A stretch of 64,000 bases of DNA from contig JAJDCH010000009.1 of assembly GCA_029260905.1 (NCBI GenBank), forward strand, positions 26,498-90,497, given 5' to 3'. A model generated the notes under the pieces. It was given only the letters and a program-made list of their open reading frames with translations. It made no database searches and was not told where the DNA came from. The translations under genes and the position numbers were made by a program. Source of the stretch: Candidatus Levyibacteriota bacterium. Lineage in GTDB: Bacteria; Patescibacteriota; Microgenomatia; Levybacterales; UBA12049. Positions 26,172-53,028 of this stretch are shown piece by piece. How positions within the stretch are numbered: the stretch's first letter is position 1; the number at the start of each line of letters is the position of its first letter.

Positions 26172-26258
26172 CGGAGGGAGGGGGATTCGAACCCCCGATA
26201 ATCTTTCGACCATACGAGCTTTCCAAGCCCGCGCACTCGACCACTATGCGATCCCTCC
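26172..26258 (-). tRNA. tRNA-Ser (GGA anticodon)
   Basis: GGAGGGA acceptor, anticodon loop TTGGAAA, long variable arm, T-arm GGGGGTTCGAATCCCCC; 87 nt. Confidence 0.7.
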
Positions 26259-26344
26259 TATTTGGGTATTGTAACAAAAACACCTCAGCCAGTCACCCAA
26301 ACCACCTTGACAACCCCCTCAAAATACATCACACTAAAATTAGT

Positions 26345-28345
26345 ATGCGCCCTGTCCTGAAACGTTTTTTTGCTTTTTGCTTTTTGCTTTTTGCTTTTTG
26401 CTTTTTGCCAAATACTGCTTTTGCCCAAACCACATCTACGTTAAATCAGACCACAAAATCAACTAATTCTTTTACTGAGCCAGATCTTGACCCCAGCGTA
26501 CCACGAAATCAGCATATTTATACTCAATCTGTGATGATTGAGGTCTTATCAGCAGTTGTTTGTCAGATAACAGGGCTTGATCCTGTTAACCCTTATCAGG
26601 GGTGTCTTGGCGTCAATCCCCAGACTCGAAAACTTAGCCTCATCCCACCCAGTCTTGATGAAAAAGGCAGTCCACAAGTGGGGGGGTTACTTGGCGCCAG
26701 CGCCAACATGATTGCAGTGCTTTATGTTCCAACAACTAGCTCTACAGATTATTTTAAGCACGTCGCCGGTAATTTTGGCCTAGTCAAGTCCGCACAAGCA
26801 CAAGAGGATAATAGCTATGGTTTGATTGCTCTTCAGCCTGTCTTTGGTCTTTGGGAAACAGTTCGTAATGTCTCATATACACTTCTTGTTCTGGCATTTG
26901 TGTTCATCGGTGTTGGAATCATGGTTAGATTTAAAATAGATCCAAGAACTGTTATGAATCTCCAAAACCAAATCCCAAGAGTAATCATCACAATTATTCT
27001 TATCACTTTTTCTTATGCAATATCAGCTGTTCTTATTGACATGATGTGGGTTAGTACTTATGCAGGAGTAAGGGTGCTTGGAGATAGTAGCGATACGAAA
27101 ATAAATGACTGTAAAAGCGATAAACCTGAAAGTCTTTCTGAAAACGCAACCAAAAACCTGCTTCAAACACCGCTTACTTATTTCCACAATGTCTTTGGAG
27201 AATGTGATGAGAGTGATGTAAACAAGTACGATGGTGGTTTTCATCGTGTTACATTTGGAGTTGCTGGCAATCTAGGACAAGTCCTCAATGACACAGCCAA
27301 AAGTCTTTTTCAAACAGATGAAAACCGTGAAGAGGGCTGCTTCAGTTTTTCAGGAATCAAACCAAACATCAACCCAGGCGCTTGTCTGATCTCAGGCATC
27401 ACTGGAGTGATGAGCTTCATGCTTATAATTGTTATCTTTGTAATTCTTTTAATTACACTTTTTAGGATCTGGTTTGCGCTTTTGAAGGCATACATCTATA
27501 CACTTGTTTTTGTTATTACTGCGCCTGTTTATTATGTGCTTGGTCTTTTACCCTCCCGTCCTCTTGGATTTCAAAAATGGCTGAGGTCTTTTTTCGCAAA
27601 TATCGCTGTTTTCCCGATAACTGCATTTGTCTTGGTGGGCGCGCGCCTCATGATAGATCTTTACAAAAACGATCTAGCAGATAAATTTGTGCCTCCATTG
27701 GTGGGAACGCCGGTTGGTGCCAATTTCGGAGTCTTAATGGCATTTGGTGCTCTTCTCATCACTCCCTCTCTACAACAGATTCTCAAAGACAAACTAGGTG
27801 TCAAGGGTATTGCGTCACCTGGTCTTATCGCAGCAGGTCTTGCAGTTGGAGCATCCCCTGTCAGCTATCTTGCAGGACGCATGAAGGGCAATCTAACAAG
27901 ACGAGATTCCCATGGTAATCCAATCGGCTCTGTGTCAAGAGGCGTTGAACAAATAGGAAAAAGCGCATATGCGGGGACTATTGGCAAGCTCCCAGGAGGA
28001 GTAGGTAAATGGGCAACACAAAGACAAAAAGAAAATTATGAAATGCGCGCAATGGGAATGGGTGGGAAAACAACCTACAAAGAATTCTTAAAAACAACAG
28101 GCATGAGCGGGAAAGAGATTGATGAAGGCGTTGGTAATATAATACGAGATAAAAAATATAAAGACGACGATTCTGGTAAAGCAAGAGATAAAGCACTAAG
28201 AGACATGACGCATGAAAAGGCTAGAAACCGTCATGTTGACTTTGGTTCCCATGTCCAACACGGAGAATCTGGAACTGGCAGGACTGCTCCAAGAAGACAA
28301 ACACCACCAGACAACAATAACGGTGAAGATAGCAACACTGGTTAA
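26345..28345 (+). CDS. polytopic membrane protein, candidate VirB6/TrbL-like type IV secretion channel component
   Basis: Signal peptide, about 150-aa extracytoplasmic region, at least six TM helices, hydrophilic Gly/Lys-rich C-terminal tail. Start placed at ATG 26345 because the track ORF start (26246) runs into a tRNA. Confidence 0.4.
   Translation: MRPVLKRFFAFCFLLFAFCFLPNTAFAQTTSTLNQTTKSTNSFTEPDLDPSVPRNQHIYTQSVMIEVLSAVVCQITGLDPVNPYQGCLGVNPQTRKLSLIPPSLDEKGSPQVGGLLGASANMIAVLYVPTTSSTDYFKHVAGNFGLVKSAQAQEDNSYGLIALQPVFGLWETVRNVSYTLLVLAFVFIGVGIMVRFKIDPRTVMNLQNQIPRVIITIILITFSYAISAVLIDMMWVSTYAGVRVLGDSSDTKINDCKSDKPESLSENATKNLLQTPLTYFHNVFGECDESDVNKYDGGFHRVTFGVAGNLGQVLNDTAKSLFQTDENREEGCFSFSGIKPNINPGACLISGITGVMSFMLIIVIFVILLITLFRIWFALLKAYIYTLVFVITAPVYYVLGLLPSRPLGFQKWLRSFFANIAVFPITAFVLVGARLMIDLYKNDLADKFVPPLVGTPVGANFGVLMAFGALLITPSLQQILKDKLGVKGIASPGLIAAGLAVGASPVSYLAGRMKGNLTRRDSHGNPIGSVSRGVEQIGKSAYAGTIGKLPGGVGKWATQRQKENYEMRAMGMGGKTTYKEFLKTTGMSGKEIDEGVGNIIRDKKYKDDDSGKARDKALRDMTHEKARNRHVDFGSHVQHGESGTGRTAPRRQTPPDNNNGEDSNTG
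26365..26408 (+). repeat. heptanucleotide tandem repeat (TTTTTGC) x6 inside the signal-peptide codons of the VirB6-like gene
   Basis: Read directly: tttttttgc tttttgc tttttgc tttttgc tttttgc tttttgc, encoding FAFCFLLFAFCFL. Confidence 0.8.
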
Positions 28346-31300
28346 TTAGATTTCGTCTGTTGGGCAATTGCTCTGATGAAAAATCCAAGCGCTGCCAAAA
28401 ACGCAACAAAACCTATCTTGCCATCAGGATGCCCTCTTTGACCAACAGTCAGATCTTTCAACATCTGGACACCAAACATCCTTTCTGTTGCAGTTTTTGC
28501 CCTCTTATGAAACCACTCCATATCAGCCTTGTTGAAATATCCTTCTTCAGCCTTAATCTTACCCAATTTTGTAAATTCATCACCCTCAATATCAACCGGC
28601 AGACTTTTTAATGCATCAATAACATTGAGATAATAGGTAAAATCATACCTTGGGTCTTTTGCATGATAAGCTTTATGGGCTAGGAAATCTGCTGCGAATT
28701 TCGACATAATAAACTGCTTAACAAGAAGCCTCTGGTTTTTGCTATCCTGCACTTTATGATAATCAATCCTGATCCTTCCATCTTCATCTCTTTCATAACC
28801 ACCATCTTTACTATCTTTCCAAAATTCTTTTCTGTTTAGCATGTCATAACCAAACATTGCCTCACCAAGTGGCATATCCCGCCAGACAGGCTTGCCAAGC
28901 ACAATTGTGGCCTGCTGATCAAGCGATCTGACCTTTCTTGAAAAATCAAGTTTTCCATAATCTCTAAATAAATATCTAAGAGGTTTAACAAAGTTTTTCT
29001 GGTAAGCATTGGTAAATTTCTCAGCATCAAATGTCACACCTTTTAATGGATGGTGAGTTGTAAAATCCTCAAACTTAAACTGCTCCTTCTGCTCCATAAT
29101 GGTGTCATACATATGAAGCGCCTTCTGGAAATGATCACGAACATAATATTCCTGAGCACCCTGCTCAAATTGCAATTTACCAGCCCTATCAAGATAAGCT
29201 TGATCCATCTGAGATTTTGCCTCAGCCATTCTCTTTTCTTTTTCTTCTTTTGAGAGACCTGCGCCATTCAGATCTGCGTTAAGCTTTTCAAGTAGTTTTT
29301 TTTGTGTTGTCTTCAGCTTTATCAGCTCATCAAATATCTCAAGAGGTGTGCGATAACGCTTAACTGAATCCTTTACCCACTCGCCTTTTTCATTTCTATA
29401 CTCACGGTCAACTTCTTCAAAATCGGTTGTCCTTATACCGCTCCACATATCAACCAGCAGCGACTTCATCTGAAACATAGAGAAAAAATTACCAAAAAAA
29501 TCTCCCCTTGGAAGCATTTTGTTTCGATATTGCTGAAAATGCATAAGCCTGTTATAGCGGTTAAAACCTCCTGCTTCTACATCATTTCTACCTGCTCCTC
29601 CTGAAAAACCAGGAATGGAGTTTGCAAGCATATATGCATACCATCTGGCATGCTCGTCCCTTTTACCATCATCATCATTTAGTTCATACTTGTCTCCCAC
29701 CACCTCCATGAGGGCATATTTAAGAAAAGTTTCTACATTTGGATCAGGACCCTTATCACCATAAATATTTATAAACTTGATAAAATTCTCTGCCTGCTCT
29801 CTTGTCTCCACTCTACCTGTTTTTGCATCAAATGCTTTTTCAAAATACTTAAGCTTTTCAGCTGTAAATGGTGCGGACTGTCTTTTCTCGCCAGACACAC
29901 CAGTCTGCATGCTTTGAACATTCTTGAAAATCTCAAGCATTTTTTTCTTATCAAAGAAATCAGACTTTGACCCCAGCATTTCCCGCAGTTTGTCAAAATC
30001 AGACAAATGATGAAGTATGTGATGCATCTCAAGCCAAGCAGCACCAAGATTGTTATCTGACTGAAACTCTTCTCCTTTTTTATATCCTTTGAATTTATGA
30101 GAAAAAGTAGTCATCAGATTCAAAAGATTTTTTTCAAAAGTTTGTTTGGTAAGCTTACTGTCTAAAAACGCTTCGAGCATTCCTTGCTTGAGCTTGTCTG
30201 GCTCATCCCTTATTTTATGAAGCTGAGTACTCCAACTATGAGTAAGCGTAAGCGCCATTGACTGCTTAACCAGCTGACGATAAAGCTCATAGTATTCAGT
30301 TTTACCATCTTCGCTATTAAAAAATTTCTTTGGGTTAAGAAAAACATCTTGCAGTGAAACAGTACCAAAACCAGAAGGTCTATCGATCTTAACAGCGCTA
30401 AAAAAATCAACAGGGCTTTCCTGATTAAAGTCCCAAGCAAACCACATCCTGTTTTGCGCCCAGGTCACAAAATTGGATTCATTTACATAGTATTTACTTT
30501 TTTCTGTATCTATTACTTTTTTCCCATTCTCTAGCACATAACCCTTCCTTGGATCATCATCTATATGTTTGTAAATAATCCGCATTTCAAGCAGAGGAAA
30601 ACGTCCGCTTAGTCCCCATTCGCCATGACCATAACCATTCATAGCTCTCCAGGCAAGTCCCTCAATTGAATCAGGATTTCTATCTGCCTCATGATCATTT
30701 TCAGCTGTAAAATCTTTATAAAAAACAAACTTTCTGATCCAATCAAATGGAAGGTTTAATTTTTGCAAAAGACAGAAAGCTGCAGGGTTGTTTTTATAAT
30801 TCTCTGCTTGCCCTCTCTTCTCAGGATCATTAAGCCATTGATCAATTTGTGTTTTCGACTCCTGCGCCAATGTTTCAAGATTGGAAAAATCCTCAGGCTT
30901 TTTACCTTTAGCAAGCATTATTTCAAGTACTGATTTTGCCTGTCCAAAATCAAGATTAAGGTGAGTTACAAGATTTTTACCTACTTGTTTTATTTTTTCA
31001 TTGGTCCAACCCGTACCATACTCACTCCAATCAACCTTAATCTTTGACATCTTAACTACATCTGTCTCTTGTTTTATAAGTCCTCCATTCTCATTTTTCT
31101 CCACCCTCTCTCCGTTCTTGTCCTCTGCCACAAACCTCCACTCATCTCTTTTCCCTTTTATTGCCTCTCCTGGTGGTGGTTCGTTCTGTCTCTCATTCCA
31201 CTGATGTCCCTCCCTGCCCCCATTTATGCCACCGATTGTTGAAAGACCTTGTTGGATATCCTCTTCAATTTTTTGCATCTTGCGTCGCCACTGCCCAATT

Positions 31301-31518
31301 TCCATTTCAGCTCTTATCTGCCTATCCAACTCGTCCTTATCCGCAAGACTTCCACCCCTGGGTGGACCCATTCCGCGTTTTATAAACTCCATTACCGAGA
31401 ATCGCTTCTCATGTGGCAAATCCTCTATTCGCTTGCCTTCATGGGCTTCCCATTCTTTTTCCGCCCTTAACTGTTCTGGTGTTTTTTCGCTTGTCTGGTC
31501 AAGTACTGCTGCTTCCAT
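28342..31518 (-). CDS. giant hypothetical protein (1058 aa), K/E-rich, cytoplasmic, with a single C-terminal TM tail anchor
   Basis: Long uninterrupted frame; no signal peptide; C-terminal GKIGFVAFLAALGFFIRAIAQ; convergent 4-nt overlap with the VirB6-like gene. Confidence 0.45.
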   Translation of the reverse strand: MEAAVLDQTSEKTPEQLRAEKEWEAHEGKRIEDLPHEKRFSVMEFIKRGMGPPRGGSLADKDELDRQIRAEMEIGQWRRKMQKIEEDIQQGLSTIGGINGGREGHQWNERQNEPPPGEAIKGKRDEWRFVAEDKNGERVEKNENGGLIKQETDVVKMSKIKVDWSEYGTGWTNEKIKQVGKNLVTHLNLDFGQAKSVLEIMLAKGKKPEDFSNLETLAQESKTQIDQWLNDPEKRGQAENYKNNPAAFCLLQKLNLPFDWIRKFVFYKDFTAENDHEADRNPDSIEGLAWRAMNGYGHGEWGLSGRFPLLEMRIIYKHIDDDPRKGYVLENGKKVIDTEKSKYYVNESNFVTWAQNRMWFAWDFNQESPVDFFSAVKIDRPSGFGTVSLQDVFLNPKKFFNSEDGKTEYYELYRQLVKQSMALTLTHSWSTQLHKIRDEPDKLKQGMLEAFLDSKLTKQTFEKNLLNLMTTFSHKFKGYKKGEEFQSDNNLGAAWLEMHHILHHLSDFDKLREMLGSKSDFFDKKKMLEIFKNVQSMQTGVSGEKRQSAPFTAEKLKYFEKAFDAKTGRVETREQAENFIKFINIYGDKGPDPNVETFLKYALMEVVGDKYELNDDDGKRDEHARWYAYMLANSIPGFSGGAGRNDVEAGGFNRYNRLMHFQQYRNKMLPRGDFFGNFFSMFQMKSLLVDMWSGIRTTDFEEVDREYRNEKGEWVKDSVKRYRTPLEIFDELIKLKTTQKKLLEKLNADLNGAGLSKEEKEKRMAEAKSQMDQAYLDRAGKLQFEQGAQEYYVRDHFQKALHMYDTIMEQKEQFKFEDFTTHHPLKGVTFDAEKFTNAYQKNFVKPLRYLFRDYGKLDFSRKVRSLDQQATIVLGKPVWRDMPLGEAMFGYDMLNRKEFWKDSKDGGYERDEDGRIRIDYHKVQDSKNQRLLVKQFIMSKFAADFLAHKAYHAKDPRYDFTYYLNVIDALKSLPVDIEGDEFTKLGKIKAEEGYFNKADMEWFHKRAKTATERMFGVQMLKDLTVGQRGHPDGKIGFVAFLAALGFFIRAIAQQTKSN

Positions 31519-31650: not shown

Positions 31651-31678
31651 TTGCGCTTTGAGTTTTGCGCTTTGAGTT
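31651..31678 (+). repeat. 14-bp direct repeat x2 (TTGCGCTTTGAGTT) overlapping the promoter of the regulator gene
   Basis: ttgcgctttgagtt ttgcgctttgagtt is followed at once by TATAAT (31680-31685) and ATG 31692. Confidence 0.75.
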
Positions 31679-31685
31679 TTATAAT
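31658..31685 (+). promoter_or_regulatory. putative promoter TTGAGT-16nt-TATAAT embedded in the direct repeats, leaderless-type
   Basis: The -35-like TTGAGT lies inside the first repeat copy; TATAAT sits 6 nt before the ATG. Confidence 0.35.
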
Positions 31686-31691
31686 CTATTT

Positions 31692-33026
31692 ATGGACGAA
31701 TATTTTGAAGCAACATATCCTGATACCGCACGAATTGCGACACTGAGTCAAATTGCCGATTTTGTCAAAAAAGGCGAATCCGCACAGCTGATTGGATTGC
31801 CCACATCTGGAAGATCTATAATTCTCAGACTCCTTGCACACAACAGCAAAGTGCGGTCAAAACACTTTGGCAAAAATTCCAAATTCCATTTTGTATTAAT
31901 TGACTTTTCAGAAATAAAAAACAGATCACTTTTTGACTGCATGAAGTTTTTCTTTTTGTCCCTGTCTGATTCTCTAAGAGCACGAGGAATGGATGAAGAA
32001 TATAAAAAAGTAAATCAATTATTTAAAGAGTCACTCAGCTTTAATGACGAGCTGGTTTTGTTTCAGGCCTTAAAAGACGCATTTGACTATCTTATCCTTG
32101 AAAGAAACCTAAACATTACATTACTCTTTGACAGATTTGAAGAATATATTCCAAGTATTACAGATCAGTTTTTTACCAACCTTCGCACTCTTCGCTCTCG
32201 CGCAATTTATAAGTTTTCAGTTATTTTTTCTCTTACCCGTCCGCTTGAGACCATGCTTGACCCATTACTTCTTGCCGATTTTTATGAACTAATTGCCGGC
32301 AATCTGATATTTCTATCCCTTGCAGATAGTGAAATAAACAAAACAAGAATAAAACATATTGAAAAAGTAACAGGCAAAAAACTCTCTTCAGTTCTTTTTG
32401 ATGAACTAACAAAACTGACAGGCGGAGCGGGCAAGCTTCTAAAAATTTCTACAGAAAGCATATTGGCCAATCAACAATTTAACAATTTAGCTATAGAGCA
32501 ATTGAGCAAAAATTTATTGCCCCAAAAACCAGTTCAAAAAACTCTGTCTGAAATCTTGCGTTCTCTGACACCTGAGGAACAGTCAGATCTCCTTACTCAA
32601 AAGTATGATAACTCTGATGTTGAGGAATATTTCGAAAAAATAGGTCTTGTTAAAAATAAAAGGATTCAAATTCCACTTTTTGAGGAATATCTGAAATCAG
32701 ATTTGATTAAAAATTCAATAAATGAAGAAAAAATTTTCTATGATAAAAATACCAATACAATCAAAAAGGGCGAGACAACTGTTTCTGACCAGCTTACTTC
32801 ATCTGAGTTCTTACTTCTCAGGCATCTTTTGCAAAATAAAGGTCAGGTTATAACTCGCGATGATATAATCAGCGCTGTCTGGCCGGATGTGAAATCAACT
32901 GCAGGAATAACTGATCAAGCAGTTGATCAGTTGATATTTAGATTAAGAAGAAAAATTGAAGAAAATCCCGCCAGTCCAGTCTATCTTTTTACTATTAAAG
33001 GACGCGGTTTCAAGTTTGAATCATAG
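31692..33026 (+). CDS. transcriptional regulator: N-terminal NTPase-like domain (degenerate P-loop) fused to a C-terminal OmpR/PhoB-type winged-helix DNA-binding domain, with no receiver domain
   Basis: C-terminus LTSSEFLLLRHLLQNKGQVITRDDIISAVWPDV...VDQLIFRLRRKIEEN...TIKGRGFKF is a Trans_reg_C signature; N-terminal LIGLPTSGRSIILRLL is P-loop-like. Start placed at ATG 31692; the track start is 31665. Confidence 0.55.
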   Translation: MDEYFEATYPDTARIATLSQIADFVKKGESAQLIGLPTSGRSIILRLLAHNSKVRSKHFGKNSKFHFVLIDFSEIKNRSLFDCMKFFFLSLSDSLRARGMDEEYKKVNQLFKESLSFNDELVLFQALKDAFDYLILERNLNITLLFDRFEEYIPSITDQFFTNLRTLRSRAIYKFSVIFSLTRPLETMLDPLLLADFYELIAGNLIFLSLADSEINKTRIKHIEKVTGKKLSSVLFDELTKLTGGAGKLLKISTESILANQQFNNLAIEQLSKNLLPQKPVQKTLSEILRSLTPEEQSDLLTQKYDNSDVEEYFEKIGLVKNKRIQIPLFEEYLKSDLIKNSINEEKIFYDKNTNTIKKGETTVSDQLTSSEFLLLRHLLQNKGQVITRDDIISAVWPDVKSTAGITDQAVDQLIFRLRRKIEENPASPVYLFTIKGRGFKFES

Positions 33027-33038: not shown

Positions 33039-33067
33039 TTGACAAAAACTCTAAATTTTTATATATT
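33039..33067 (+). promoter_or_regulatory. sigma70-like promoter TTGACA-17nt-TATATT upstream of the basic-protein gene
   Basis: TTGACA at 33039-33044 and TATATT at 33062-33067; ATG at 33076. Confidence 0.35.
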
Positions 33068-33075
33068 ATAATGCT

Positions 33076-33609
33076 ATGAAAGAGGGTAATCACATTGTTA
33101 TTCCATTCAGACCGAAAGTACGCGGTGGGGAAACAGTGCCTCAAGTAGAACAAAAAAAGAAAAAGCAATCAACTCTAAAAACAGCTATGGATTTGGTGCA
33201 GGAGCATGATCCCGCTATTCCTCAAACAACAAAAAGATTTTCAATGCGACAAAGATATCGAGGCAACTGGAGGATGCTTAGAACATCAGCTGGTAGAGAA
33301 ATGTACAACAAGGTTCTAGCGATAAAATATCTTCGCGCAGAAACAGCAAGCAAAAAAGAGCAATCCAAACCTAACAGGGAAAATGAAAAAGCACCAAGAA
33401 CGCGACAAAAAGAAACGCTGGTTGCGAGTTTCAAAAACAGAAAAAGGCTTAGAAAAGAAAGCGCTGCAACTGGAATAAATCTTGGTATGTTTGTGCCAGA
33501 GACTCCAAAACAAGAAATTGACTCCAAGCTAAAAAAAGAATTAAGAAACAGACCATTTACTGTTTTTGATGCAGGAAAAAATAAAACAAAGGAGAAACAA
33601 GCCGCTTAA
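33076..33609 (+). CDS. hypothetical highly basic (K/R-rich) protein
   Basis: No TM helix; about 30% K plus R; possibly nucleic-acid binding. Confidence 0.35.
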   Translation: MKEGNHIVIPFRPKVRGGETVPQVEQKKKKQSTLKTAMDLVQEHDPAIPQTTKRFSMRQRYRGNWRMLRTSAGREMYNKVLAIKYLRAETASKKEQSKPNRENEKAPRTRQKETLVASFKNRKRLRKESAATGINLGMFVPETPKQEIDSKLKKELRNRPFTVFDAGKNKTKEKQAA

Positions 33610-33652: not shown

Positions 33653-33976
33653 ATGGCTTATCTTGCTCAATTGCGACTTCCAGGCGGCAACAATATCGAT
33701 GCCCCAAAAGGCATTCCCCAGGGTGGAATAAATGAAGTTCAATCAATCTTCAGCAACAGCATTACTATCATGATTATACTGACAATCATTCTTGCTCTTT
33801 TCTTTCTTATCTGGGGAGGTATCCAATGGATCACATCAGGTGGGGATAAAAATAAGGTAGCACAAGCCCGAGCCAAACTAACCTGGGCAATAATTGGTGT
33901 TGTTGTTGCTTTTGTTTCGTTTTTAATCGTAAATCTTATTGGATACTTCTTTAATATCCCAATTTTCGGGTCTTAA
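33653..33976 (+). CDS. VirB2/TrbC-like small membrane protein (pilin candidate), paralogue 1
   Basis: Two TM helices flanking the invariant FFLIWGGIQWITSGGDKNKVAQARAK motif shared with the next two genes. The N-terminus lacks a clear signal peptide, so the start is uncertain. Confidence 0.4.
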   Translation: MAYLAQLRLPGGNNIDAPKGIPQGGINEVQSIFSNSITIMIILTIILALFFLIWGGIQWITSGGDKNKVAQARAKLTWAIIGVVVAFVSFLIVNLIGYFFNIPIFGS

Positions 33977-34043
33977 ACTTTATCAATTCTTCTTTTGGCT
34001 ATTGACAAGGAGAAAAAAAATATACTATCATTGAGTTAATCCT

Positions 34044-34469
34044 ATGAAAAAGGCACAAAACATAATCTTAGCTTTATTTGTCGCTCTATCTCTTTTTGTC
34101 TTTACACCAGCTGTTGTTTTTGCTGGTCCTACGATAAATCCATGTCCAGACGGAGCTGACGGAGGCGGAACTGACTTCGGCAACCTTTGCGACCTTGACG
34201 CTGACCAAGTCGGTCCATTGATTTCAAGAGTTGTACAGATTCTTCTTATCGCTGCTGCAATTATTGCTCTTTTCTTTCTCATCTGGGGAGGTATTCGCTG
34301 GGTAACATCAGGTGGAGACAAAGCCAAGGTAGATGAAGCCAGAAAACACATTGTTGCTGCAATAATTGGTCTGATTATTGCTTTCCTAGCATTCTTTATC
34401 TTAAGTTTTGTACTTAACCTCTTTGGAATAAGCCTTACTGAATTACAGCTTCCACAGCTTACTCCATAA
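34044..34469 (+). CDS. VirB2/TrbC-like small membrane protein (pilin candidate), paralogue 2
   Basis: Signal peptide, then TM-loop-TM with FFLIWGGIRWVTSGGDKAKVDEARKH. Confidence 0.45.
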   Translation: MKKAQNIILALFVALSLFVFTPAVVFAGPTINPCPDGADGGGTDFGNLCDLDADQVGPLISRVVQILLIAAAIIALFFLIWGGIRWVTSGGDKAKVDEARKHIVAAIIGLIIAFLAFFILSFVLNLFGISLTELQLPQLTP

Positions 34470-34514
34470 ACCTAAACTTGCTTTTCTACCCACGTCTTTG
34501 ATAGGCTAAATAAA

Positions 34515-34919
34515 ATGACACAAATTAAAAAATCCTTTGTTTTTTTCTTAATGCTTACAGGCTTATTTGCTATGCTCCCAAGTCCAGCTCTCGCAAACAG
34601 CTGGGACAGTTGTGTTAAAAAGCTTCCAGCCGGAGGCGAGGTCCCAACTCTTAGATGTTTTCCGGTTGTATTTAGCAATCTTACCAGCACAGCTCTTACA
34701 TTTGTGGGCGCAGTTGCTGTAATTCTTATTGTCTATTCGGGCATCAAATTTGTAACATCAGGTGGAGATCCCAAGAAAGTCGGTGAAGCTCGAGCAATTA
34801 TGACCTATGCGATAATTGGTGCAGTAATAGTTCTGCTATCTTTTACAATAATTTATCTGATTAGCTACTTTACAGGCGCGGATTGTGTAACTGATTTTTC
34901 TATTGGAAGCTGCAATTAA
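34515..34919 (+). CDS. VirB2/TrbC-like small membrane protein (pilin candidate), paralogue 3
   Basis: Signal peptide, then TM-loop-TM with ILIVYSGIKFVTSGGDPKKVGEARAI. Confidence 0.45.
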   Translation: MTQIKKSFVFFLMLTGLFAMLPSPALANSWDSCVKKLPAGGEVPTLRCFPVVFSNLTSTALTFVGAVAVILIVYSGIKFVTSGGDPKKVGEARAIMTYAIIGAVIVLLSFTIIYLISYFTGADCVTDFSIGSCN

Positions 34920-35035
34920 AACGGTGGTTTGGCCTCTTTTCATCAAAACTTTTCACAAAAACCCTGTCAATCTGGATCATTTGACACACTTTGTTCCGGT
35001 TGAAATGCTATTTTTCACATTATACACTGATTGAA

Positions 35036-36397
35036 ATGGACCAGCACCCAATACCCCAAGATGTTACAGGCTTTCAATTTAAGCTTATTGGAAGCATGAC
35101 TGTAAAACAGTTTGGCTTTGTTGCAACTGGGGTTATAATGGCAGTTCTTTTCTACTACCTGCCACTTAGCGGGTTTTTTGGTATTCTTTTCAAGATTTTT
35201 GCAATTCCCTTTTTTGGAGCAAGTGGCTTTATAATTGCATTTGTACCAATTGATGGCAGGTCAATTGATGTAATGGTCGGAAATTTTACTAAAGCGCTTT
35301 TTTCTCCCAATCAGTACGTCTATCACAAACTCGGCAAAAAATTTAGCTTCTCAACAGTCAATACTCACAAGAGTCTTTTTGCCCAAAATCAAACCACCAG
35401 CTCTCATCCAAAACAAGAAGTAACACAAAAAACAGATCAGCTTCGATCATTTCTAAAAGAAAGCGTCAAATCAAAACCAAAAAGCGCATTAGATGAAAAA
35501 GAAGCTGCTTTTATCAGCTCTTTTGCTCCAGCACCTCAAACAACTCCCCAAGCGGCCATTTCTTCACATCCAACAAAAAACATACCCATGCTTCAGCAAG
35601 CACAACAAATACTGTCATCTATAAAGCCGGTTCAAACCATTACGCACCAAACACCTAACCAAACCCCTCAACAAACAAAAAAGGCCATCCAAGATACTAC
35701 AAATCCAATTGATCAAAATAACCCAACTAGTAAAAATGTGCCTGAGCATAATCAAGCACCAGCTGCAAAACCAATAGACGCAGAGCCTGACTCGCTTCAT
35801 AAACAAATTCAAGAAGCGCATAACCAAAAACTCAGACTAGAAAAAGAATTGGCTGATTTAAAAGCTCAACTAGGCACGCGTAAAACCCAACCAGAACCTG
35901 AACCATCTCAAGCAGCAACACAGATGTCTTCAACGACAACCACCCCTGCTCAACCAACAAAACCAACAGAAACAAACACTATGCCTGCTACACAGCCTCA
36001 ACAAGCGACAACGTCAGTTGCTCCAACACCAAGCTCAACACACGTAAGAAGTATTCCAAAAGAACAATCTAAAAAAATGGGTCTTCTCGCGCCAGATACT
36101 CCAAATGTCATAGTTGGTGTAGTCAAAGACGCCAGAGGCAATCTTCTCCCAAACGTGCTTGTTGAGGTCAAAGACAGGGAAGAAAACCCAGTTCGCGCAT
36201 TTAAAACAAATCCTCTTGGACAGTTTGTTTCAGCAACCCCTCTTTTACCGGGCGCGTATACAATAAGCCTTGAGGACCCCAAAAAACAACACACATTTGA
36301 TGAGATTCAGATAACGGCAGGCGGCCAAATCTTACCACCCATTGAGATAATTTCTTATGACGCCAGAGAACAACTAAGAAGAGAGTTGTTTAATTAA
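35036..36397 (+). CDS. PrgI/VirB3-like membrane domain fused to a Q/T/P-rich linker and a C-terminal carboxypeptidase-regulatory-like beta-sandwich domain
   Basis: N-terminus MDQHPIPQDVTGFQFKLIGSMTVKQFGFVATGVIMAVLFYYLP...FVPIDGRSIDVMVGNF matches the PrgI-family pattern; C-terminus VIVGVVKDARGNLLPNVLVEV...GAYTISL is CarboxypepD_reg-like. Start placed at the internal Met. Confidence 0.45.
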   Translation: MDQHPIPQDVTGFQFKLIGSMTVKQFGFVATGVIMAVLFYYLPLSGFFGILFKIFAIPFFGASGFIIAFVPIDGRSIDVMVGNFTKALFSPNQYVYHKLGKKFSFSTVNTHKSLFAQNQTTSSHPKQEVTQKTDQLRSFLKESVKSKPKSALDEKEAAFISSFAPAPQTTPQAAISSHPTKNIPMLQQAQQILSSIKPVQTITHQTPNQTPQQTKKAIQDTTNPIDQNNPTSKNVPEHNQAPAAKPIDAEPDSLHKQIQEAHNQKLRLEKELADLKAQLGTRKTQPEPEPSQAATQMSSTTTTPAQPTKPTETNTMPATQPQQATTSVAPTPSSTHVRSIPKEQSKKMGLLAPDTPNVIVGVVKDARGNLLPNVLVEVKDREENPVRAFKTNPLGQFVSATPLLPGAYTISLEDPKKQHTFDEIQITAGGQILPPIEIISYDAREQLRRELFN

Positions 36398-36409: not shown

Positions 36410-37093
36410 ATGCCTGTTCAAAAAGCACATGCTACAACGCAAAAATTTACAGAGATTGTTGACTTTGTCGACAATCTGGTAATCCTTGAGGGGGGAGCTG
36501 CTTGCCTTGTGATTGAAATAACAGCTAGCAACTTCTCGCTTCTATCCAGAAGAGAGCAGGATTCTCGTATTTTTTCTTACGCTTCGCTTCTTAATTCACT
36601 TTCTTTTCCAATACAAATACTTATCAGAAATAAAAAAATGGATATATCGCTTTATCTAAGAGAGCTAGATGCTGTTGTTAAAAGCACCAAAAACGAACAA
36701 CTGGCAACATATATTGATTATTATCGAGATTTTGTTCAGGAAATGGTGACAGTAAACGTTGTTTTAAACAAAGCTTTTTATATCGTCATTCCATTTTCAT
36801 CACTTGAGCTGGGCATTGGTGGAGCAACAAAACAAGCAACAAAAAAAGGCTCTCCAGCCCCATCTCAAAAAGATGTTTTTGCTCAAACAGCTGCAAAAGC
36901 TCTGCAATCAAAGGCAAGCTCAGTCCTTGGACAGCTTCAAAAATTTGCGGTAACAGCTCGTGTTCTTGAAAAGGAAGACCTAGTGAAGCTTTTTTATGAT
37001 ATATACAATGACGGCGCAAATATAGGAACTGAGCAGGTAAAAGATGCTGCAGATACTCCAATCATAAGAAAAGAAGGAGAAGTTCAAGCATGA
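36410..37093 (+). CDS. hypothetical protein, possibly the detached N-terminal domain of a split VirB4
   Basis: EIVDFVDNLVILEGGAACLVIEITASNFSLLSRREQDS resembles the VirB4 N-terminal region. ATGA overlap with the downstream VirB4 ATPase gene. Confidence 0.3.
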   Translation: MPVQKAHATTQKFTEIVDFVDNLVILEGGAACLVIEITASNFSLLSRREQDSRIFSYASLLNSLSFPIQILIRNKKMDISLYLRELDAVVKSTKNEQLATYIDYYRDFVQEMVTVNVVLNKAFYIVIPFSSLELGIGGATKQATKKGSPAPSQKDVFAQTAAKALQSKASSVLGQLQKFAVTARVLEKEDLVKLFYDIYNDGANIGTEQVKDAADTPIIRKEGEVQA

Positions 37094-39144
37094 AAATCCC
37101 ATTTTTAAATAAATCATCCAAACAAACACCCACCTCACAAGTGGTAAAAAAAGCGCAAGGCGTTCCCCAACAAAAAACTGCACCTCAGGTTGTAAAACCG
37201 CAACAAAATAAAGCTATTGCAACGCTTGAGAAGGGCGCAACGTCAGTTATTGACATAATAGCTCCCTCATCTGTTGAAGTTGACTTTCGTTATGTCAGGG
37301 TTGGCGAGACCTATTACACAACTCTTTTTCTCGCTGGCTATCCACGCTATGTTTCTCCAGGCTGGCTAACGCCAATTATTGATTATGACCATACATTGGA
37401 TATCAGCATGTTTATTTACCCAACCTCATCATCAGACGTTCTTAGTGATTTAAAAAGAAAAATTGGTGAAATGCAAGCAACTATTTCATCTGATGCAGAA
37501 GCAGGCAAAGCAACAGACCCGACAGTTGAGGCGGCGCTTGAAGACGCGCTTGGTCTTCAGGAAGAGCTAGCCAAGGGAGTTGAGAGATTCTTCCAGTTTG
37601 GTTTTTATATCACTGTTTCAGCAGGAGACCTGGGAGAACTCCAAGAAACAACCAAAGAATTAAAAACCACACTAAGCTCTCTTCTTCTTGCAGGCAAAAC
37701 AGCAACTCTTCAGTCAGAAGAAGGCTTTAAGTCAACTCTTCCAATCGGACAAGACAGGCTTTATATAACACGAAATATGGATACCACCTCTCTTGCAACC
37801 ACCTTTCCCTTCACATCAGCTGTTTTAACTCAAAATAAAGGCGTAATGTATGGAGTGAATCAACAGAATGGGTCACTTATCATCTTTGACAGATTTTCCC
37901 TTGAAAATGCCAATGAGGTGGTTCTTGGAAAATCTGGCGCGGGAAAATCTTACACAATTAAGCTTGAAATCGCCAGACAATTCATGCTTGGCGCAGAGGT
38001 TATTGTAATTGATCCTGAAGGAGAGTATGGAACACTTACTCCAACCCTCGGAGGTGAGACAGTTGATTTTTCATCAAACTCCGAAGTAAAACTAAACCCT
38101 TTTGACCTTGCAGATGTTTATGAAGAGGGCGAAAACCAATTGGGGTTGAAGATTCTTTCTCTACACGGACTTCTAAAAATAATCATGGGGGACATGGATG
38201 CAGAGCATGATGCTATTCTAGACAGAGCCTTAATTGAAACTTATCGTCAAAAGGGAATAACTACCGACCCTGCAACCCAAAAAAAACAACCCCCACTTAT
38301 GGAAGATCTTTATAAAGCGCTCCTTGGCATGGAAACACAAACTGCAAAAGACCTAGCTTTCAGGCTCGAGAAATTCATCAAAGGTTCTGCTGCTGGGATT
38401 TTTAATCAACAATCAAACTTCGTAATCGACAATCCTCTAACAGTTTTTTCAATCCGAAACCTTGAAGAGGAGTTAAGACCAGTTGCAATGCACATCATTC
38501 TTGATTTTGTCTGGACAAAGGTTAAAAAAACTCTTAAAAAAAGAATTCTGATCCTTGATGAAGCATGGTACATGATGAAATATCAGGACTCTGCATCGTT
38601 TGTCTACTCAATTGCAAAAAGAGCGCGTAAATACTACCTTGGCATGACCACGGCTACACAAGATGTCGAAGACTTTCTCAAAAACGAATATGGCAAGGCG
38701 GTTCTCACCAACTCATCAATCCAAATACTTCTTAAGCAAGGGACTGCTGAGGTCGATATGATCGCTGATACGTTTTATTTATCGGAGGGAGAAAAGGCCC
38801 TTCTTCTTTCATCTGATGTAGGGGAAGGACTTTTCTTTGCCGGACAAAACCATGTAACCATGAAGGTGTTTGCAGCGCCTTTTGAGCATGAATTGATAAC
38901 ATCCAATCCTCAAGAGGTTATGAAACGACAAGAAGAAGAAAAGGCAGAAAGAGACACTGAGGCAGCAGAGTCAGCTTCTCAAGCTCCACAAGCAGCACAG
39001 CAGACCACAACACAACAACCTAGCCCTCAGACAACACCACAAACACCTGCTCCTGAAGCGCCAGCTGCTCCCCAAGCCCAAAATTCCACAACTCCAACTA
39101 CTACACCTCCGGGTGTTCCCCCAACTGCTCAGCAGACATCATAG
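37090..39144 (+). CDS. VirB4/TrbE/CagE-family type IV secretion ATPase (ATPase portion) with Pro/Gln/Thr-rich C-terminal tail
   Basis: Walker A VVLGKSGAGKSYTIK, VIVIDPEGEY, Walker B RILILDEAW, and the upstream GYPRYVSPGWL region typical of VirB4. Confidence 0.7.
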   Translation: MKIPFLNKSSKQTPTSQVVKKAQGVPQQKTAPQVVKPQQNKAIATLEKGATSVIDIIAPSSVEVDFRYVRVGETYYTTLFLAGYPRYVSPGWLTPIIDYDHTLDISMFIYPTSSSDVLSDLKRKIGEMQATISSDAEAGKATDPTVEAALEDALGLQEELAKGVERFFQFGFYITVSAGDLGELQETTKELKTTLSSLLLAGKTATLQSEEGFKSTLPIGQDRLYITRNMDTTSLATTFPFTSAVLTQNKGVMYGVNQQNGSLIIFDRFSLENANEVVLGKSGAGKSYTIKLEIARQFMLGAEVIVIDPEGEYGTLTPTLGGETVDFSSNSEVKLNPFDLADVYEEGENQLGLKILSLHGLLKIIMGDMDAEHDAILDRALIETYRQKGITTDPATQKKQPPLMEDLYKALLGMETQTAKDLAFRLEKFIKGSAAGIFNQQSNFVIDNPLTVFSIRNLEEELRPVAMHIILDFVWTKVKKTLKKRILILDEAWYMMKYQDSASFVYSIAKRARKYYLGMTTATQDVEDFLKNEYGKAVLTNSSIQILLKQGTAEVDMIADTFYLSEGEKALLLSSDVGEGLFFAGQNHVTMKVFAAPFEHELITSNPQEVMKRQEEEKAERDTEAAESASQAPQAAQQTTTQQPSPQTTPQTPAPEAPAAPQAQNSTTPTTTPPGVPPTAQQTS

Positions 39145-39167: not shown

Positions 39168-40445
39168 ATGGACATTGAGAACAAATTACCAGAAGAAGAT
39201 CAATCAGAAGAACAAGAAAACAATGACCGATCTAGCCCCTCAAATCCCAGCTCCAATGGCAGGGGTGAAAAAAAGGAAGCCAAGAACGAAGTAAAACAAA
39301 ACAAAAAAGAAAATATTGACAAAAACGATCAAAAAGCTAAGGGCAAAGATGATGCTCTCAATCAACAACACAGCAAAGATAAAGGGCTAGGACTTTTAAG
39401 CAAAAAATTAAAGGCTGTTCGCGAAGCAAAAAGAGGAGAGAGGCTTAAGGCTGCAAAAACCTTAGCCAAAAGCGCAATCAAAAAAAAAGTTTTGCAAGCT
39501 GCTAAAAAAGGTCTTATTGCTGGTGGAAACACCATTGCGCCTGGACTTGGTACTGCTACAGGGTTTGCTATAGATCATCCCAAAACAGCTGCAATTATTG
39601 TTGTCTTGGCCATTACACTTCCAATTATAATATTAACTATGGTTTTTTCTGCATTTACCAGTTCTTTAAACACTTCTGGTGAGGGTGATTCCGTTTTTGT
39701 TTCAGGCTCTTGTCCACATGATGCGATTGCTGGCGGCGTGGCAGAATGTTCGATAAACGTTTCTTATCCTGGAGAAGCATCAGACATACTAATTTCAATT
39801 GACCTTCCACCTGGCACTGAATATATCGACTCTGTGCCTGAAGCCACTTTTGACGGCAAGACCATCTCGTGGAGTCTTATTGGCCCAAACCCCTTACCAA
39901 ACGCAAAACTAAGCAATGTCAACACAACCCTGCTTTTCCATCTACGTGGAAGTGGTGTTCCCTCGGCAAGCCTACCCATTGCTTACTCGATTGTTCCATT
40001 TGTTGAATCAGAAACCCCCATTCAAGAAGCATTAAACAATTCTGGTTGTGATGGATCAACCCCGAATAATCCTCATGGAAATTTTGGCAACCCAAATTGC
40101 GATTTTAATAAAAATGAATTGGGTAAAATTTTAAGAAGAGAAGACCCTGCCAACGCATACAAATGGGATGCAATAATAGCTTGTGAGAGTACATACAACC
40201 CAAACGCCTATAATCCAAATTCCTCTAGTGGAAAAGGGGCATATGGGCTTTTGCAGATGAATCCCGCACAACAAAGAACTGATATTTATAGATTTGATGC
40301 TGGAAATGTAAACTGGAACCCAGACAGTAGGCCACTTGGTGTTGCAGCAGGAGCACAGGTTACAAACGCAATAAACTATAATACTATTGGATTGAAAGGA
40401 AGTTTCAAGTATTGGGAATGTAGAAAGGCAGCTGGAATAAGATGA
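39168..40445 (+). CDS. membrane-anchored cell-wall hydrolase: DUF11-like repeat domain plus Rpf-type lysozyme-like transglycosylase domain (VirB1 functional analogue)
   Basis: K-rich N-terminus, TM (AAIIVVLAITLPIIILTMVF), DUF11-like SINVSYPGEASDILISIDLPPGTEYI, and C-terminal WDAIIACESTYNPNAYNP...GKGAYGLLQMNP resembling the Rpf transglycosylase-like domain. Confidence 0.5.
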   Translation: MDIENKLPEEDQSEEQENNDRSSPSNPSSNGRGEKKEAKNEVKQNKKENIDKNDQKAKGKDDALNQQHSKDKGLGLLSKKLKAVREAKRGERLKAAKTLAKSAIKKKVLQAAKKGLIAGGNTIAPGLGTATGFAIDHPKTAAIIVVLAITLPIIILTMVFSAFTSSLNTSGEGDSVFVSGSCPHDAIAGGVAECSINVSYPGEASDILISIDLPPGTEYIDSVPEATFDGKTISWSLIGPNPLPNAKLSNVNTTLLFHLRGSGVPSASLPIAYSIVPFVESETPIQEALNNSGCDGSTPNNPHGNFGNPNCDFNKNELGKILRREDPANAYKWDAIIACESTYNPNAYNPNSSSGKGAYGLLQMNPAQQRTDIYRFDAGNVNWNPDSRPLGVAAGAQVTNAINYNTIGLKGSFKYWECRKAAGIR

Positions 40446-43396: not shown

Positions 43397-43644
43397 ATAA
43401 CTATTTTAGTTGTTGTAGTAGTCTATCTGGAAAAGTGGAAAAAATCAACTTATAAATATCTTATAAAGAAATTTATATAAATTAGTTTATCCACCAAATC
43501 AACCTTTTTTTTTAAAAAAACAAAATATAATAATGCCAAACCTCATTAAACCATAGGCATAAAAAATGTGGATAAAATGTTTAAATCTTTCTGTATAAAA
43601 TGTTAACAAAAAAATAACAAAAACTTCTTAACAAATTATCCACG
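43397..43644. other. oriC-type region: AT-rich dnaA-dnaN intergenic spacer with three DnaA boxes
   Basis: TTATCCACC at 43487-43495; TGTGGATAA (perfect reverse-complement consensus) at 43567-43575; TTATCCACG at 43636-43644 overlapping the dnaA stop; T10A7 tract at about 43496-43515. Confidence 0.7.
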
Positions 43645-53021: not shown

Positions 53022-53028
53022 CAAATAA

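Follow-up and report, generated by a model that had tools for sequence, protein, structure and literature searches.

Do tandem genes for small pilin-like proteins specify interchangeable versions of one subunit, or different parts of one machine? The question is raised by a window of 64,000 nucleotides (the whole stretch of DNA analysed here) from a genome which is Levybacteria-like (Microgenomatia, CPR). A small VirB2-like membrane protein of the T4SS_pilin family adjoins the type IV secretion genes in most CPR bacteria (Patescibacteria). Here there are three candidates for that role, P1 (33653-33976, 107 aa), P2 (34044-34469, 141 aa) and P3 (34515-34919, 134 aa), each read from the sequence as an open reading frame on the forward strand. 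A sequence-only reading had noticed three tandem small-protein genes at this place, and all three same-strand ORFs were recovered exactly where it had put them. We conclude that the trio is very probably a VirB2-like T4SS_pilin (PF18895) array belonging to a chromosomal, origin-proximal type IV secretion system (T4SS) of the Patescibacteria/CPR type. What the individual members contribute is discussed in the following paragraphs.

Family membership

Pairwise BLASTP gave E values of 2.7e-20 (P1-P2), 3.5e-19 (P1-P3) and 5.6e-12 (P2-P3). This similarity is beyond chance, and one Pfam family exceeds its gathering score in all three proteins, which bears out the paralogy proposed for them. For membership of that family, PF18895 (T4SS_pilin), the whole protein has to reach the curated HMM gathering score, 26.6 bits; P1, P2 and P3 scored 37.8, 45.2 and 36.4 bits, respectively. 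A search with P2 yielded 408 homologues at E ≤ 0.001, and among the matches listed all belong to PF18895. The TSGGD loop motif described below is specific to the PF18895 group and is found in hundreds of homologues, and no holin or phage family was matched; the two grounds on which the sequence-only reading might have been abandoned, a motif missing from homologues or a best match of the holin type, have fallen away.

It is scarcely conceivable that these are members of an unrelated small membrane family (a holin, a small transporter subunit or a toxin) which stand near the T4SS genes by chance. There are weak sub-threshold matches to the two-helix families DUF2165, TctB and DctQ, but such Pfam matches are all below cutoff and occur in a minority of the relatives, whereas PF18895 was matched by 147 of the 147 relatives sampled. 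A PHROG search returned no match at E ≤ 0.01, and in dozens of genomes the pilin genes have remained neighbours of those for PrgI, TrsD and VirB4. Family membership together with synteny effectively refutes this explanation. A phage holin in particular was rejected on the PHROG result and on the context, which is a T4SS cluster and not a lysis cassette.

Two other classes of pilin were also considered and rejected. Type IV pilus pilins have a class III signal peptide with the prepilin-peptidase site G-(F/M)TLIE and a single hydrophobic helix at the N-terminus; the site is absent from the trio, the members of which have two transmembrane (TM) helices each. Nor are these sortase-assembled Gram-positive pilins, which are recognized by Ig-like domains and a C-terminal LPXTG sorting signal: the proteins are hairpins of 107-141 aa with no LPXTG or matching Pfam domain. 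A profile search of PDB sequences revealed no pilin, the best match being to a photosystem subunit (E 0.18).

The type IV secretion gene cluster

The three pilin genes are consecutive and lie directly upstream of the gene for a PrgI/VirB3-like membrane protein (35036-36397, + strand; PF12666 PrgI, 33.1 bits; PF13620, 30.9 bits), which is syntenic in relatives and possesses a long Q/P/T-rich linker and a C-terminal CarboxypepD_reg-like domain. Its reading frame is open from 34991; the likely start is the ATG at 35036, with a promoter-like site at 35000-35028. Next comes a TrsD-like protein (36410-37093, + strand) which resembles the VirB4 N-terminal region; its reading frame runs 4 nt into virB4. 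Its NCBIfam matches are weak (VirB4_plasma N-terminal region, E 1.6e-08; TrsD, E 3.6e-04), and it shows 40-69% identity across relatives. The VirB4-like T4SS ATPase (37090-39144, + strand), the start of which is 2.2 kb downstream of the trio, scored 392 bits against NF045971 conju_CD1110 (cutoff 325) and matched PF19044, PF01935 and PF12846. It is followed by a VirB1-like protein with an SLT lytic-transglycosylase domain (39168-40445, + strand; PF01464, 22.7 bits, cutoff 21.3), which is also syntenic in relatives. The same arrangement recurs in dozens of Levybacteria loci. The pilin-like identity first suggested from the sequence alone is upheld by this setting within a PrgI/TrsD/VirB4/SLT cluster and by the PF18895 scores of all three proteins.

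On the other side of the trio is an OmpR/PhoB-type regulator (31665-33026, + strand) with a C-terminal winged-helix DNA-binding domain (PF00486, 65.9 bits) and no receiver domain; it adjoins the pilin array in most Levybacteria loci. Two conserved partners precede it, one of 1058 aa (g1058; 28342-31518, - strand), which is syntenic in relatives and has no Pfam or NCBIfam match, and one of 699 aa (g699; 26246-28345, + strand), which is syntenic in more than 50 loci. An orthologue of the latter in L002 has a weak TrbL match, and g699 is, tentatively, possibly VirB6/TrbL-like. Pfam and NCBIfam scans gave no usable family for the neighbours g699, g1058, g179, g234 and g194, and identified no VirB6-like or VirB8-like machine part with confidence in the window. 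Relatives carry a large pilin-domain protein at the position of orf177 (33076-33609); the proposal that orf177 is a remnant of it was rejected, as there is no similarity.

A VirD4-like coupling-protein homologue (8014-10407, - strand; PF02534, PF10412 and PF12696; NF045973 at E 4.7e-16, below cutoff) is encoded 24 kb from the pilin array. No relaxase domain was found in any scanned ORF of the window. The genes dnaN (42281-43396, - strand) and dnaA (43636-45000, - strand), both recognized by Pfam match, mark the replication-origin region beside the T4SS cluster, 3 kb downstream of the PrgI/TrsD-like/VirB4 genes. Housekeeping genes lie on either side of the cluster.

The conserved hairpin

Alignment of the three proteins gave the conserved-loop readings FFLIWGGIQWITSGGDKNKVAQARAK for P1, FFLIWGGIRWVTSGGDKAKVDEARKH for P2 and ILIVYSGIKFVTSGGDPKKVGEARAI for P3. 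The three-way invariant core is G-I-x-[WF]-[IV]-T-S-G-G-D-x-x-K-V-x-x-A-R, to which AIIG in helix 2 can be added. An invariant loop LIWGGIxWxTSGGD-KxxxxxAR had been claimed; of this the GI...TSGGD...AR core stands, while the whole motif does not, FFLIWGGI being present in P1 and P2 only.

In each protein a short polar loop separates two hydrophobic helices. Hydropathy places the TM segments at residues 39-57 and 79-97 in P1, 63-81 and 106-124 in P2, and 59-77 and 99-117 in P3, and the AlphaFold2 model of P2 has helices at 53-87 and 93-126 with pLDDT >90. The proposed layout of signal peptide, TM segment, loop and TM segment agrees with the two helices of all three members and with the signal peptides of P2 and P3; P1 has none. 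The charged residues of the loop are K, K, R and K. In mature P2 the N-terminus is acidic, with 7 Asp, and contains the Cys pair. This opposition of a basic loop and an acidic, Cys-paired N-terminus means that the sequence fits the positive-inside rule.

Features of P1, P2 and P3

No signal peptide was found in P1, the N-terminus of which (MAYLAQLRLPGG...) lacks hydrophobic character. The start codon of this gene can be regarded as fixed since the N-terminal sequence MxYLA(x)LTLPGG is common to 33 P1 orthologues. P1 contains no Cys residues.

The signal peptide of P2 is typical, with a basic MKK start and a hydrophobic core, and then VFA-G. Ahead of the hairpin its acidic, Gly/Asp-rich N-terminal segment contains the Cys pair C34 and C49, as expected from the earlier description of a Cys-bearing Gly/Asp-rich part in this paralogue, and PC...F..LC is kept in 68 P2 orthologues.

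P3 likewise has a typical signal peptide (basic residues IKK, hydrophobic core, then ALA-N). It had been credited with two Cys residues; the actual number is four, arranged as an N-terminal pair (C33/C48) and a C-terminal pair (C124/C133). The corresponding patterns W..C...ATL.C and TG..C.....F...C are kept in 42 P3 orthologues.

Promoter-like elements

P2 is preceded by a predicted promoter of the sigma-70 consensus type (34002-34031, + strand; TTGACA, 18 nt, TATCAT), which matches 11 of the 12 consensus positions and ends 12 nt before the ATG. An upstream element of the form TTGACA-N16-19-TAnnAT was found with 51/66 P2-type genes, 0/33 P1-type and 0/42 P3-type genes, against a background of 0.1-0.3% in random windows and 1.5% at the starts of other ORFs.

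The elements in front of the other two genes, located by sequence reading and a scan, are of a different kind. That of P1 (33618-33646, + strand; TTGCAA, 17 nt, TAATCT) ends 6 nt before the ATG, from which a leaderless mRNA is predicted; in relatives a conserved related element, CTTGCwTTT...TAcGCT, is found upstream of P1-type genes. That of P3 (34478-34507, + strand; TTGCTT, 18 nt, TG-n-TAGGCT) ends 7 nt before the ATG, and by a strict pattern the P3-class element was detected with 19/42 P3-type genes as compared with a background of 0.1-0.3%. CTTGCwTTT...TGnTAcGCT, which is distinct from the P2 element, precedes P1- and P3-type genes. Both promoter types end 6-12 nt ahead of the ATG. In the window as a whole the frequency of promoter-like matches is not above that in shuffled sequence. 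From the consensus and the footprint across relatives we infer a separate conserved promoter for each gene and leaderless or near-leaderless mRNAs.

By these criteria P2 is likely to be the major subunit, the grounds being its consensus promoter and the variable copy number of its class. P1 and P3, with a common, different and weaker-looking promoter type, are likely to be minor or accessory subunits.

Order and variation in related loci

The majority of related loci (78/82) contain 2-11 pilin genes each. Wherever the genes could be typed (23/23 loci of relatives) the order is P1, P2, P3, the P2 type being present in 1-5 copies. Conserved features at the N- and C-termini differ from class to class, and identity is 45-64% to orthologues versus 27-39% among P1, P2 and P3. 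These are old, distinct classes, and they are probably non-redundant. In some relatives large ectodomains of 200-800 aa are fused to a C-terminal pilin hairpin, which looks like a displayed adhesin or tip.

A contrasting view is that the tandem copies are interchangeable variants of one subunit, a means of altering what is exposed at the surface in the service of host range or evasion. This has been proposed for the VirB2 arrays of Bartonella and Anaplasma, and has already been voiced for Patescibacteria (PMC12102498). The variable parts of the proteins are indeed their exposed N- and C-terminal segments, with hairpin and loop conserved. The P2-type copy number differs among related genomes, other CPR lineages have up to 11 genes, and a 63-nt tract of P1 and P2 with 51/63 identical bases hints at occasional gene conversion. 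The variation may, however, concern the P2 class of other genomes, that of the window being single. The three classes run across Levybacteria with motifs of their own, with or without a signal peptide, and each gene has a conserved promoter. The surroundings of the trio revealed no switching repeats, inverted repeats or silent cassettes, and no invertase. We therefore rejected phase variation or a cassette mechanism, the direct repeats being the paralogous cores only and the apparent inverted repeats short A/T-rich chance matches. Because the classes are ancient, their order is fixed, their promoters are separate and conserved, and switching repeats are lacking, the alternative-subunit idea fits poorly and we consider it quite unlikely. 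The original suggestion of "alternative or mixed" subunits with possible surface variation can accordingly be narrowed: mixed subunits fit the trio better than alternative ones.

Comparison with known systems

Quinonero-Coronel et al. 2025 (PMC12102498) described 441 arrays from Patescibacteria, found especially in Microgenomatia and Saccharimonadia, in which 2-11 VirB2-like pilin genes stand close to virB4 and dnaA. In these the T4SS is near dnaA, a relaxase is mostly absent, and the arrays vary greatly (mean identity 25%). The trio is like them in its tandem layout beside virB4, its position near dnaA, its Microgenomatia-type host and the lack of a detected relaxase. If an array of this type is defined as at least two pilin-family genes in tandem or one gene apart, near virB4, the trio is one, and by gene content and position its T4SS is of the same Patescibacteria/MPF-FATA-related type (PrgI, TrsD-like, CD1110-type VirB4, chromosomal, near dnaA). 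There is no essential difference; what the Levybacteria add is three fixed classes in a fixed order with a promoter each. The pilin array is real but already described, by Pfam and recent papers, and the same subject has been reviewed (PMC12857230). The trio is a clean, typical Levybacteria example and not an element of a novel type.

The pilin series in the T4SS cluster (SEML1_0006-0019) of Southlakia epibionticum ML1 is essential by Tn-seq (Wang et al. 2023, PMC10633639). As in the window, several small predicted pilins are encoded in a Gram-positive-type T4SS cluster without a recognisable relaxase. This organism is, however, a Saccharibacterium with six pilins and essentiality established by Tn-seq, whereas the Levybacteria window has three, known from sequence.

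The best curated match outside PF18895 is NF045849, a family of pilin-like conjugal transfer proteins from Mycoplasma ICEs (Mbov_0395 / MMCAP2_0565). P1 matched it at E 5.7e-07 (29.1 bits), P2 at 1.2e-08 (34.5 bits) and P3 at 1e-04 (21.9 bits). Since these scores are below the cutoff of 40 bits the trio are relatives, not members, of NF045849. Of the related proteins sampled, 138/147 matched at E ≤ 0.01, with a best E of 4.5e-10. The NF045849 protein, like those of the trio, has two helices, and its gene stands beside that of a VirB4-type ATPase from a system of the MPF-FATA type; in Mycoplasma these genes are carried by a mobile ICE, in contrast to the chromosomal, origin-proximal cluster of the window.

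Substrate transfer, too, requires VirB2, in a role that does not depend on the making of a pilus. The hairpin proteins could, in the same way, be membrane-embedded channel or stator parts of the translocon, with no pilus at all, an explanation which we hold to be somewhat unlikely. It draws on the affinity to a family from wall-less Mycoplasma, on P1 having no signal peptide, and on the observation that conjugative pili are not known from monoderm MPF-FATA systems (PMC12102498). It accords less well with P2 and P3, whose acidic N-terminal extensions and conserved Cys pairs outside the cytoplasm suggest exposed, structured surfaces, or with the ectodomain-hairpin fusions and their resemblance to a displayed adhesin or tip. 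Reviewers in the field prefer a pilus-like structure, as a speculation (PMC12857230).

Comparison with TrbC/VirB2 (PF04956), which the sequence-only reading had put forward as a check, gave little: P1 alone matches (15.3 bits, E 0.023, cutoff 27.9), P2 and P3 do not, and among the relatives 35/147 matched at E ≤ 0.1 (best E 7.9e-06). When the CPR pilin alignments A3 and A2 were compared by hhalign with a VirB2 alignment, the probabilities were 0.4% and 0.8%, respectively, in what is a narrow test, the latter alignment consisting of 36 homologues of Agrobacterium VirB2 of the Rhizobiales type only. With probabilities below 1%, the sequences give no ground for claiming homology to VirB2 sensu stricto. 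The likeness to the diderm VirB2/TrbC/TraA pilins would be one of predicted design, i.e. TM segment, short basic loop and TM segment, with both termini outside (as is predicted for the trio), and of being encoded with VirB3 and VirB4 homologues. The diderm pilins have a signal peptide, as do P2 and P3 but not P1, and the host of the trio is a monoderm. Arrays of VirB2 paralogue genes also exist in Bartonella and Anaplasma (PMC12102498). The three classes in their fixed order, the class-specific promoters, the first member without a signal peptide and the link to the Mycoplasma protein argue that the pilin may have been inherited with an MPF-FATA-like ancestor and not borrowed from a diderm system.

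Proposed assembly

Each protein would be embedded in the cytoplasmic membrane, both termini lying outside and the conserved basic TSGGD-K-x-K-V-x-x-A-R loop on the cytoplasmic side. P2 and P3 would be inserted by way of cleavable Sec signal peptides, and the N-terminal tail of P1 would be translocated without one. The PrgI/VirB3, TrsD and VirB4 machinery could then extract the proteins and build a pilus-like or conduit-like structure, in which P2 would predominate and P1 and P3 would be the lesser or accessory components. Extracellular F and T pili contain bound phospholipid. By analogy with them the loop might line the lumen, with the variable, disulphide-stabilised terminal segments facing outward. 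Polymerisation into a pilus is likewise suggested by analogy; we know of no pilus or filament of PF18895 proteins observed in any organism.

Implications

To our knowledge all characterised conjugative pili are VirB2 homopolymers with a VirB5 tip. A tentative and rather unlikely extension of our results is that in Levybacteria, and perhaps in the CPR more widely, the T4SS filament or conduit is not a homopolymer but a fixed multi-component structure. P2, strongly transcribed, would be its major component; P1, which lacks a signal peptide, and P3, with a disulphide loop near its C-terminus, would be conserved minor hairpin components. All would be made from separate, leaderless transcripts, with the promoter type shared by P1 and P3 possibly under the OmpR-type regulator. 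If true, this would be unlike all characterised conjugative pili, and the "variable pilin arrays" of Patescibacteria would have to be seen as ordered sets of specialised components.

Saccharibacteria cannot grow as epibionts without the homologous T4SS and its pilin array (PMC10633639); the Patescibacterial T4SS belongs to a small number of machines for which a need in the epibiotic life of these ultrasmall bacteria has been shown, and pilin arrays are the feature which separates it from other monoderm T4SSs. The three ordered classes, the class-specific promoters, the first member without a signal peptide and the link to Mycoplasma ICEs are incremental refinements of published work. As comparative details they could help in choosing the first pilin to be tagged, deleted or imaged.

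Three tandem pilin-family genes

Three consecutive ORFs on the plus strand lie at exactly the positions that a sequence-only reading of the window had reported: P1 (33653-33976, 107 amino acids), P2 (34044-34469, 141 amino acids) and P3 (34515-34919, 134 amino acids). Their proposed tandem paralogy is borne out by BLASTP, the matches being far beyond chance for all three pairs (P1-P2, 2.7e-20; P1-P3, 3.5e-19; P2-P3, 5.6e-12); in MAFFT alignments the same pairs are 38-39%, 35% and 27% identical, respectively. Each protein has two strongly hydrophobic segments either side of a short polar loop, and AlphaFold2 models P2 as a helical hairpin (helices 53-87 and 93-126, loop T88-D92; hairpin pLDDT >90).

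Invariant across the three are the core G-I-x-[WF]-[IV]-T-S-G-G-D-x-x-K-V-x-x-A-R and, after it in helix 2, AIIG. The longer motif originally described, FFLIWGGI...TSGGD...AR, is shared by all three only as far as this core goes; FFLIWGGI is common to P1 and P2, and the P3 equivalent is ILIVYSGIKF. Similarly, the signal peptides claimed for the proteins are found in P2 and P3 but not in P1. P2 has two cysteines (residues 34 and 49) and P3 has four (33, 48, 124 and 133) rather than two. The NCBI-derived P3 protein is 122 amino acids long, with its start at 34551; orthologue alignment and promoter position lead us to favour 34515 as the true start, which gives the signal peptide back its basic N-terminal region.

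Family membership

All three proteins match PF18895 (T4SS_pilin) above its curated cutoff of 26.6 bits (P1 37.8, P2 45.2, P3 36.4), so that the description of them as pilin-like was right. P2 has 408 homologs at E ≤ 0.001 in a collection of 5.8 billion proteins, with PF18895 in all matches listed. Scanning GTDB at one genome per species gave 303 confirmed relatives, the closest being genomes named Levybacteria or Levyibacteriota and others whose MAG titles are plainly wrong. This places the window in a Levybacteria-like member of the Microgenomatia (CPR/Patescibacteria).

TrbC/VirB2 (PF04956), the family put forward earlier for comparison, did not reach threshold; P1 gave the sole match of the three (15.3 bits; cutoff 27.9). 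Among 147 relatives 35 match this family at E ≤ 0.1 (best E 7.9e-06), and hhalign of CPR pilin alignments against a verified VirB2 alignment returned probabilities <1%. A sequence profile search of the PDB found no pilin, and in a structure search the two-helix hairpin matched hundreds of unrelated chains. P1-P3 lack the motifs that define type IV and sortase pilins and have none of the matches that would mark a holin, which excludes all three of these identities.

Of the curated families other than PF18895, the closest is NF045849, a pilin-like conjugal transfer protein (Mbov_0395) found in Mycoplasma ICEs (E 5.7e-07 for P1, 1.2e-08 for P2 and 1e-04 for P3, all scoring under its cutoff), which is matched by 138 of the 147 relatives. 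These ICEs are of the MPF-FATA class, to which the Patescibacterial VirB4 has been assigned (PMC12102498). The link suggests that the hairpin protein was an original part of the monoderm system, a point which that study left open.

Related loci

A family-built HMM was run against all ORFs of 82 related loci, and each gene found was typed by its best match among P1, P2 and P3. Tandem pilin-family genes, 2-11 per locus, occur in 78 of the 82. The Levybacteria plan is often a large pilin-hairpin protein, then a P1-type gene, one to five P2-type genes and a P3-type gene; the order P1, P2(n), P3 holds in 23/23 loci where all three classes could be typed with confidence. Because orthologues (45-64% identical to P1-P3 of the window) are closer than paralogues, the triplication is older than the sampled Levybacteria. 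The P1 class has a fixed N-terminus, MxYLA(x)LTLPGG, with neither signal peptide nor cysteine. Members of the P2 class carry a signal peptide and, within an acidic segment, the cysteine pair PC...F..LC. Those of the P3 class also have a signal peptide, and two cysteine pairs: W..C...ATL.C and, at the C-terminus, TG..C.....F...C.

The large protein (236-935 amino acids; e.g. L022:8520-9989, L057:8383-9999 and L068:10752-13559) stands directly upstream of the P1-type gene in many Levybacteria and other CPR loci, its last ca. 100 residues being a PF18895-type hairpin. It looks like a pilin-anchored ectodomain, perhaps a tip or an adhesin; neither the window nor its closest relatives have it. In the window its usual slot holds orf177 (33076-33609), annotated as a gene by NCBI, which specifies a very basic, K/R/E-rich protein of 177 amino acids with no homologue in any of the 82 loci. 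The sole family hit of this protein, a weak one, is to a minor tail PHROG of phages (E 0.0019). The orf177 ATG lies 6 nt beyond the end of a consensus promoter, TTGACA-N19-TATTAT (33039-33069).

Some close relatives (L001:8440-9264, L002:8450-9274) have P1- and P2-type genes only; since a PD-(D/E)XK nuclease gene comes next instead of P3, PrgI and VirB4, the VirB4 module is not linked to the pilin pair there.

Promoters

The P1-P2 spacer contains TTGACA, 18 nt and TATCAT (34002-34031), ending 12 nt before the P2 ATG. TTGACA-N16-19-TAnnAT occurs ≤80 nt from the start in 51 of 66 P2-type genes, stopping 6-22 nt (most often 10-12 nt) before it, and in 0/33 P1-type and 0/42 P3-type genes; random windows have it at a background rate of 0.1-0.3%, other ORF starts at 1.5%. 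By this conservation the P2 element is a phylogenetic footprint. P1- and P3-type genes have another conserved element, CTTGCwTTT, a spacer and TG-n-TA(c/g)(g/t)CT, ending 6-9 nt before the ATG (strict pattern in 8/33 and 19/42, respectively, against a background of 0.1-0.3%); in the window the promoter-like elements, both on the plus strand, are TTGCAA-N17-TAATCT for P1 (33618-33646) and TTGCTT-N18-TAGGCT for P3 (34478-34507). From these elements we infer that P1, P2 and P3 are separate transcription units, P2 having the strongest promoter. Their mRNAs would be leaderless or nearly so, because -10-like hexamers end 6-12 nt before the starts at 33653, 34044 and 34515, as at 35036 and 33076, and no Shine-Dalgarno sequence is found there. 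Unlike the pilin-cluster genes, g1058 (start 31518) has a leader of ca. 30 nt with AAGGAG.

The T4SS neighbourhood

Downstream of the pilins are four plus-strand genes. The first two encode PrgI/VirB3-like (34991/35036-36397) and TrsD-like (36410-37093) proteins, the latter similar to the N-terminal part of VirB4; the others encode a CD1110-type VirB4 (37090-39144; 392 bits, cutoff 325) and an SLT-domain protein (39168-40445). After these come dnaN and dnaA. The PrgI-like ORF probably starts at ATG 35036, 7 nt downstream of a promoter-like TTGAAA-N17-TACACT; its product has a Q/P/T-rich linker of ca. 250 amino acids and a C-terminal CarboxypepD_reg-like beta-sandwich, an extension unusual for a VirB3-type protein and kept in relatives. 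Dozens of loci share the order nudix, g699, g1058, Trans_reg_C regulator, pilins, PrgI, TrsD, VirB4, SLT and g179 (a conserved neighbour with no usable Pfam or NCBIfam match), onward to dnaN/dnaA. In this window g699 probably starts downstream of its longest-ORF start (26246), since a minus-strand tRNA (26172-26258) covers that position.

The regulator (31665-33026) adjoins the pilin array, on either strand, in most Levybacteria loci. It has a C-terminal OmpR/PhoB winged helix, no receiver domain, and over its N-terminal ca. 350 residues only a weak ORC/Cdc6-like ATPase match; it is a candidate controller of the P1/P3-type promoters.

A VirD4/TraG-like coupling-protein homologue (8014-10407, minus strand) lies 24 kb from the cluster amid housekeeping genes, and no scanned ORF of the window has a relaxase domain. 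The remainder is housekeeping (pgk, gap, nrd, murD, yidC, smpB, tmRNA, class A PBP); the T4SS is chromosomal and origin-proximal, not a mobile element. The window also contains a XerC/D-type recombinase gene (4400-5260), eight tRNAs, and smpB followed directly by a 426-nt tmRNA (112 bits) in the region 52101-53024. For Patescibacterial T4SS a position near dnaA/dnaN, abundant TrsD and a lack of relaxases have been noted (PMC12102498). That of Southlakia epibionticum, whose coupling and relaxase proteins are not recognisable, is together with its pilin series essential for epibiotic growth (PMC10633639), and reviewers have speculated that the T4SS is a conduit for uptake from, or exchange with, the host (PMC12857230).

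Proposed specialised subunits and assembly

Before assembly VirB2 and TraA are hairpins in the membrane with their termini outside and the loop in the cytoplasm. In P1-P3, K, K, R and K are found in the loop, and the mature P2 N-terminus is acidic, with paired cysteines. The positive-inside rule predicts that they too would be membrane hairpins, both of their ends lying outside and the TSGGD loop in the cytoplasm. VirB4, TrsD and PrgI would then, by analogy, pull them out and stack them into a pilus-like or conduit-like structure, its lumen lined by the loop and its outer face formed by the variable, disulphide-stabilised ends. On this reading the major subunit would be P2, with P1 and P3 as minor or accessory parts.

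Diversified tandem pilins had also been read as a possible means of surface variation, a speculation made as well in the survey which sought VirB2-like pilins with PF18895 and PF04956 in 1,948 Patescibacteria assemblies and found 441 arrays of 2-11 genes, especially in Microgenomatia and Saccharimonadia (PMC12102498). For P1-P3 the conservation of each class, the constant gene order and the separate promoters favour a mixture of specialised subunits over interchangeable variants, and no switching repeats surround the genes. Tracts in P1 (33788-33850) and P2 (34260-34322) are identical at 51/63 bases and have 11/15 synonymous codons in common, the second highest similarity among 30 loci after L016, a small sign of exchange that points to a possible short gene conversion between the two in this lineage. 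It is because of this common tract that P1 reads FFLIWGGI, where its orthologues mostly have LIFLILGGI.

This kind of feature has already been published, and the window holds a genuine, well-formed and typical example of it. To what is known of these arrays it adds modest refinements: three fixed classes, predicted class-specific promoters of leaderless type, a first member without signal peptide, and a link to the Mycoplasma ICEs.
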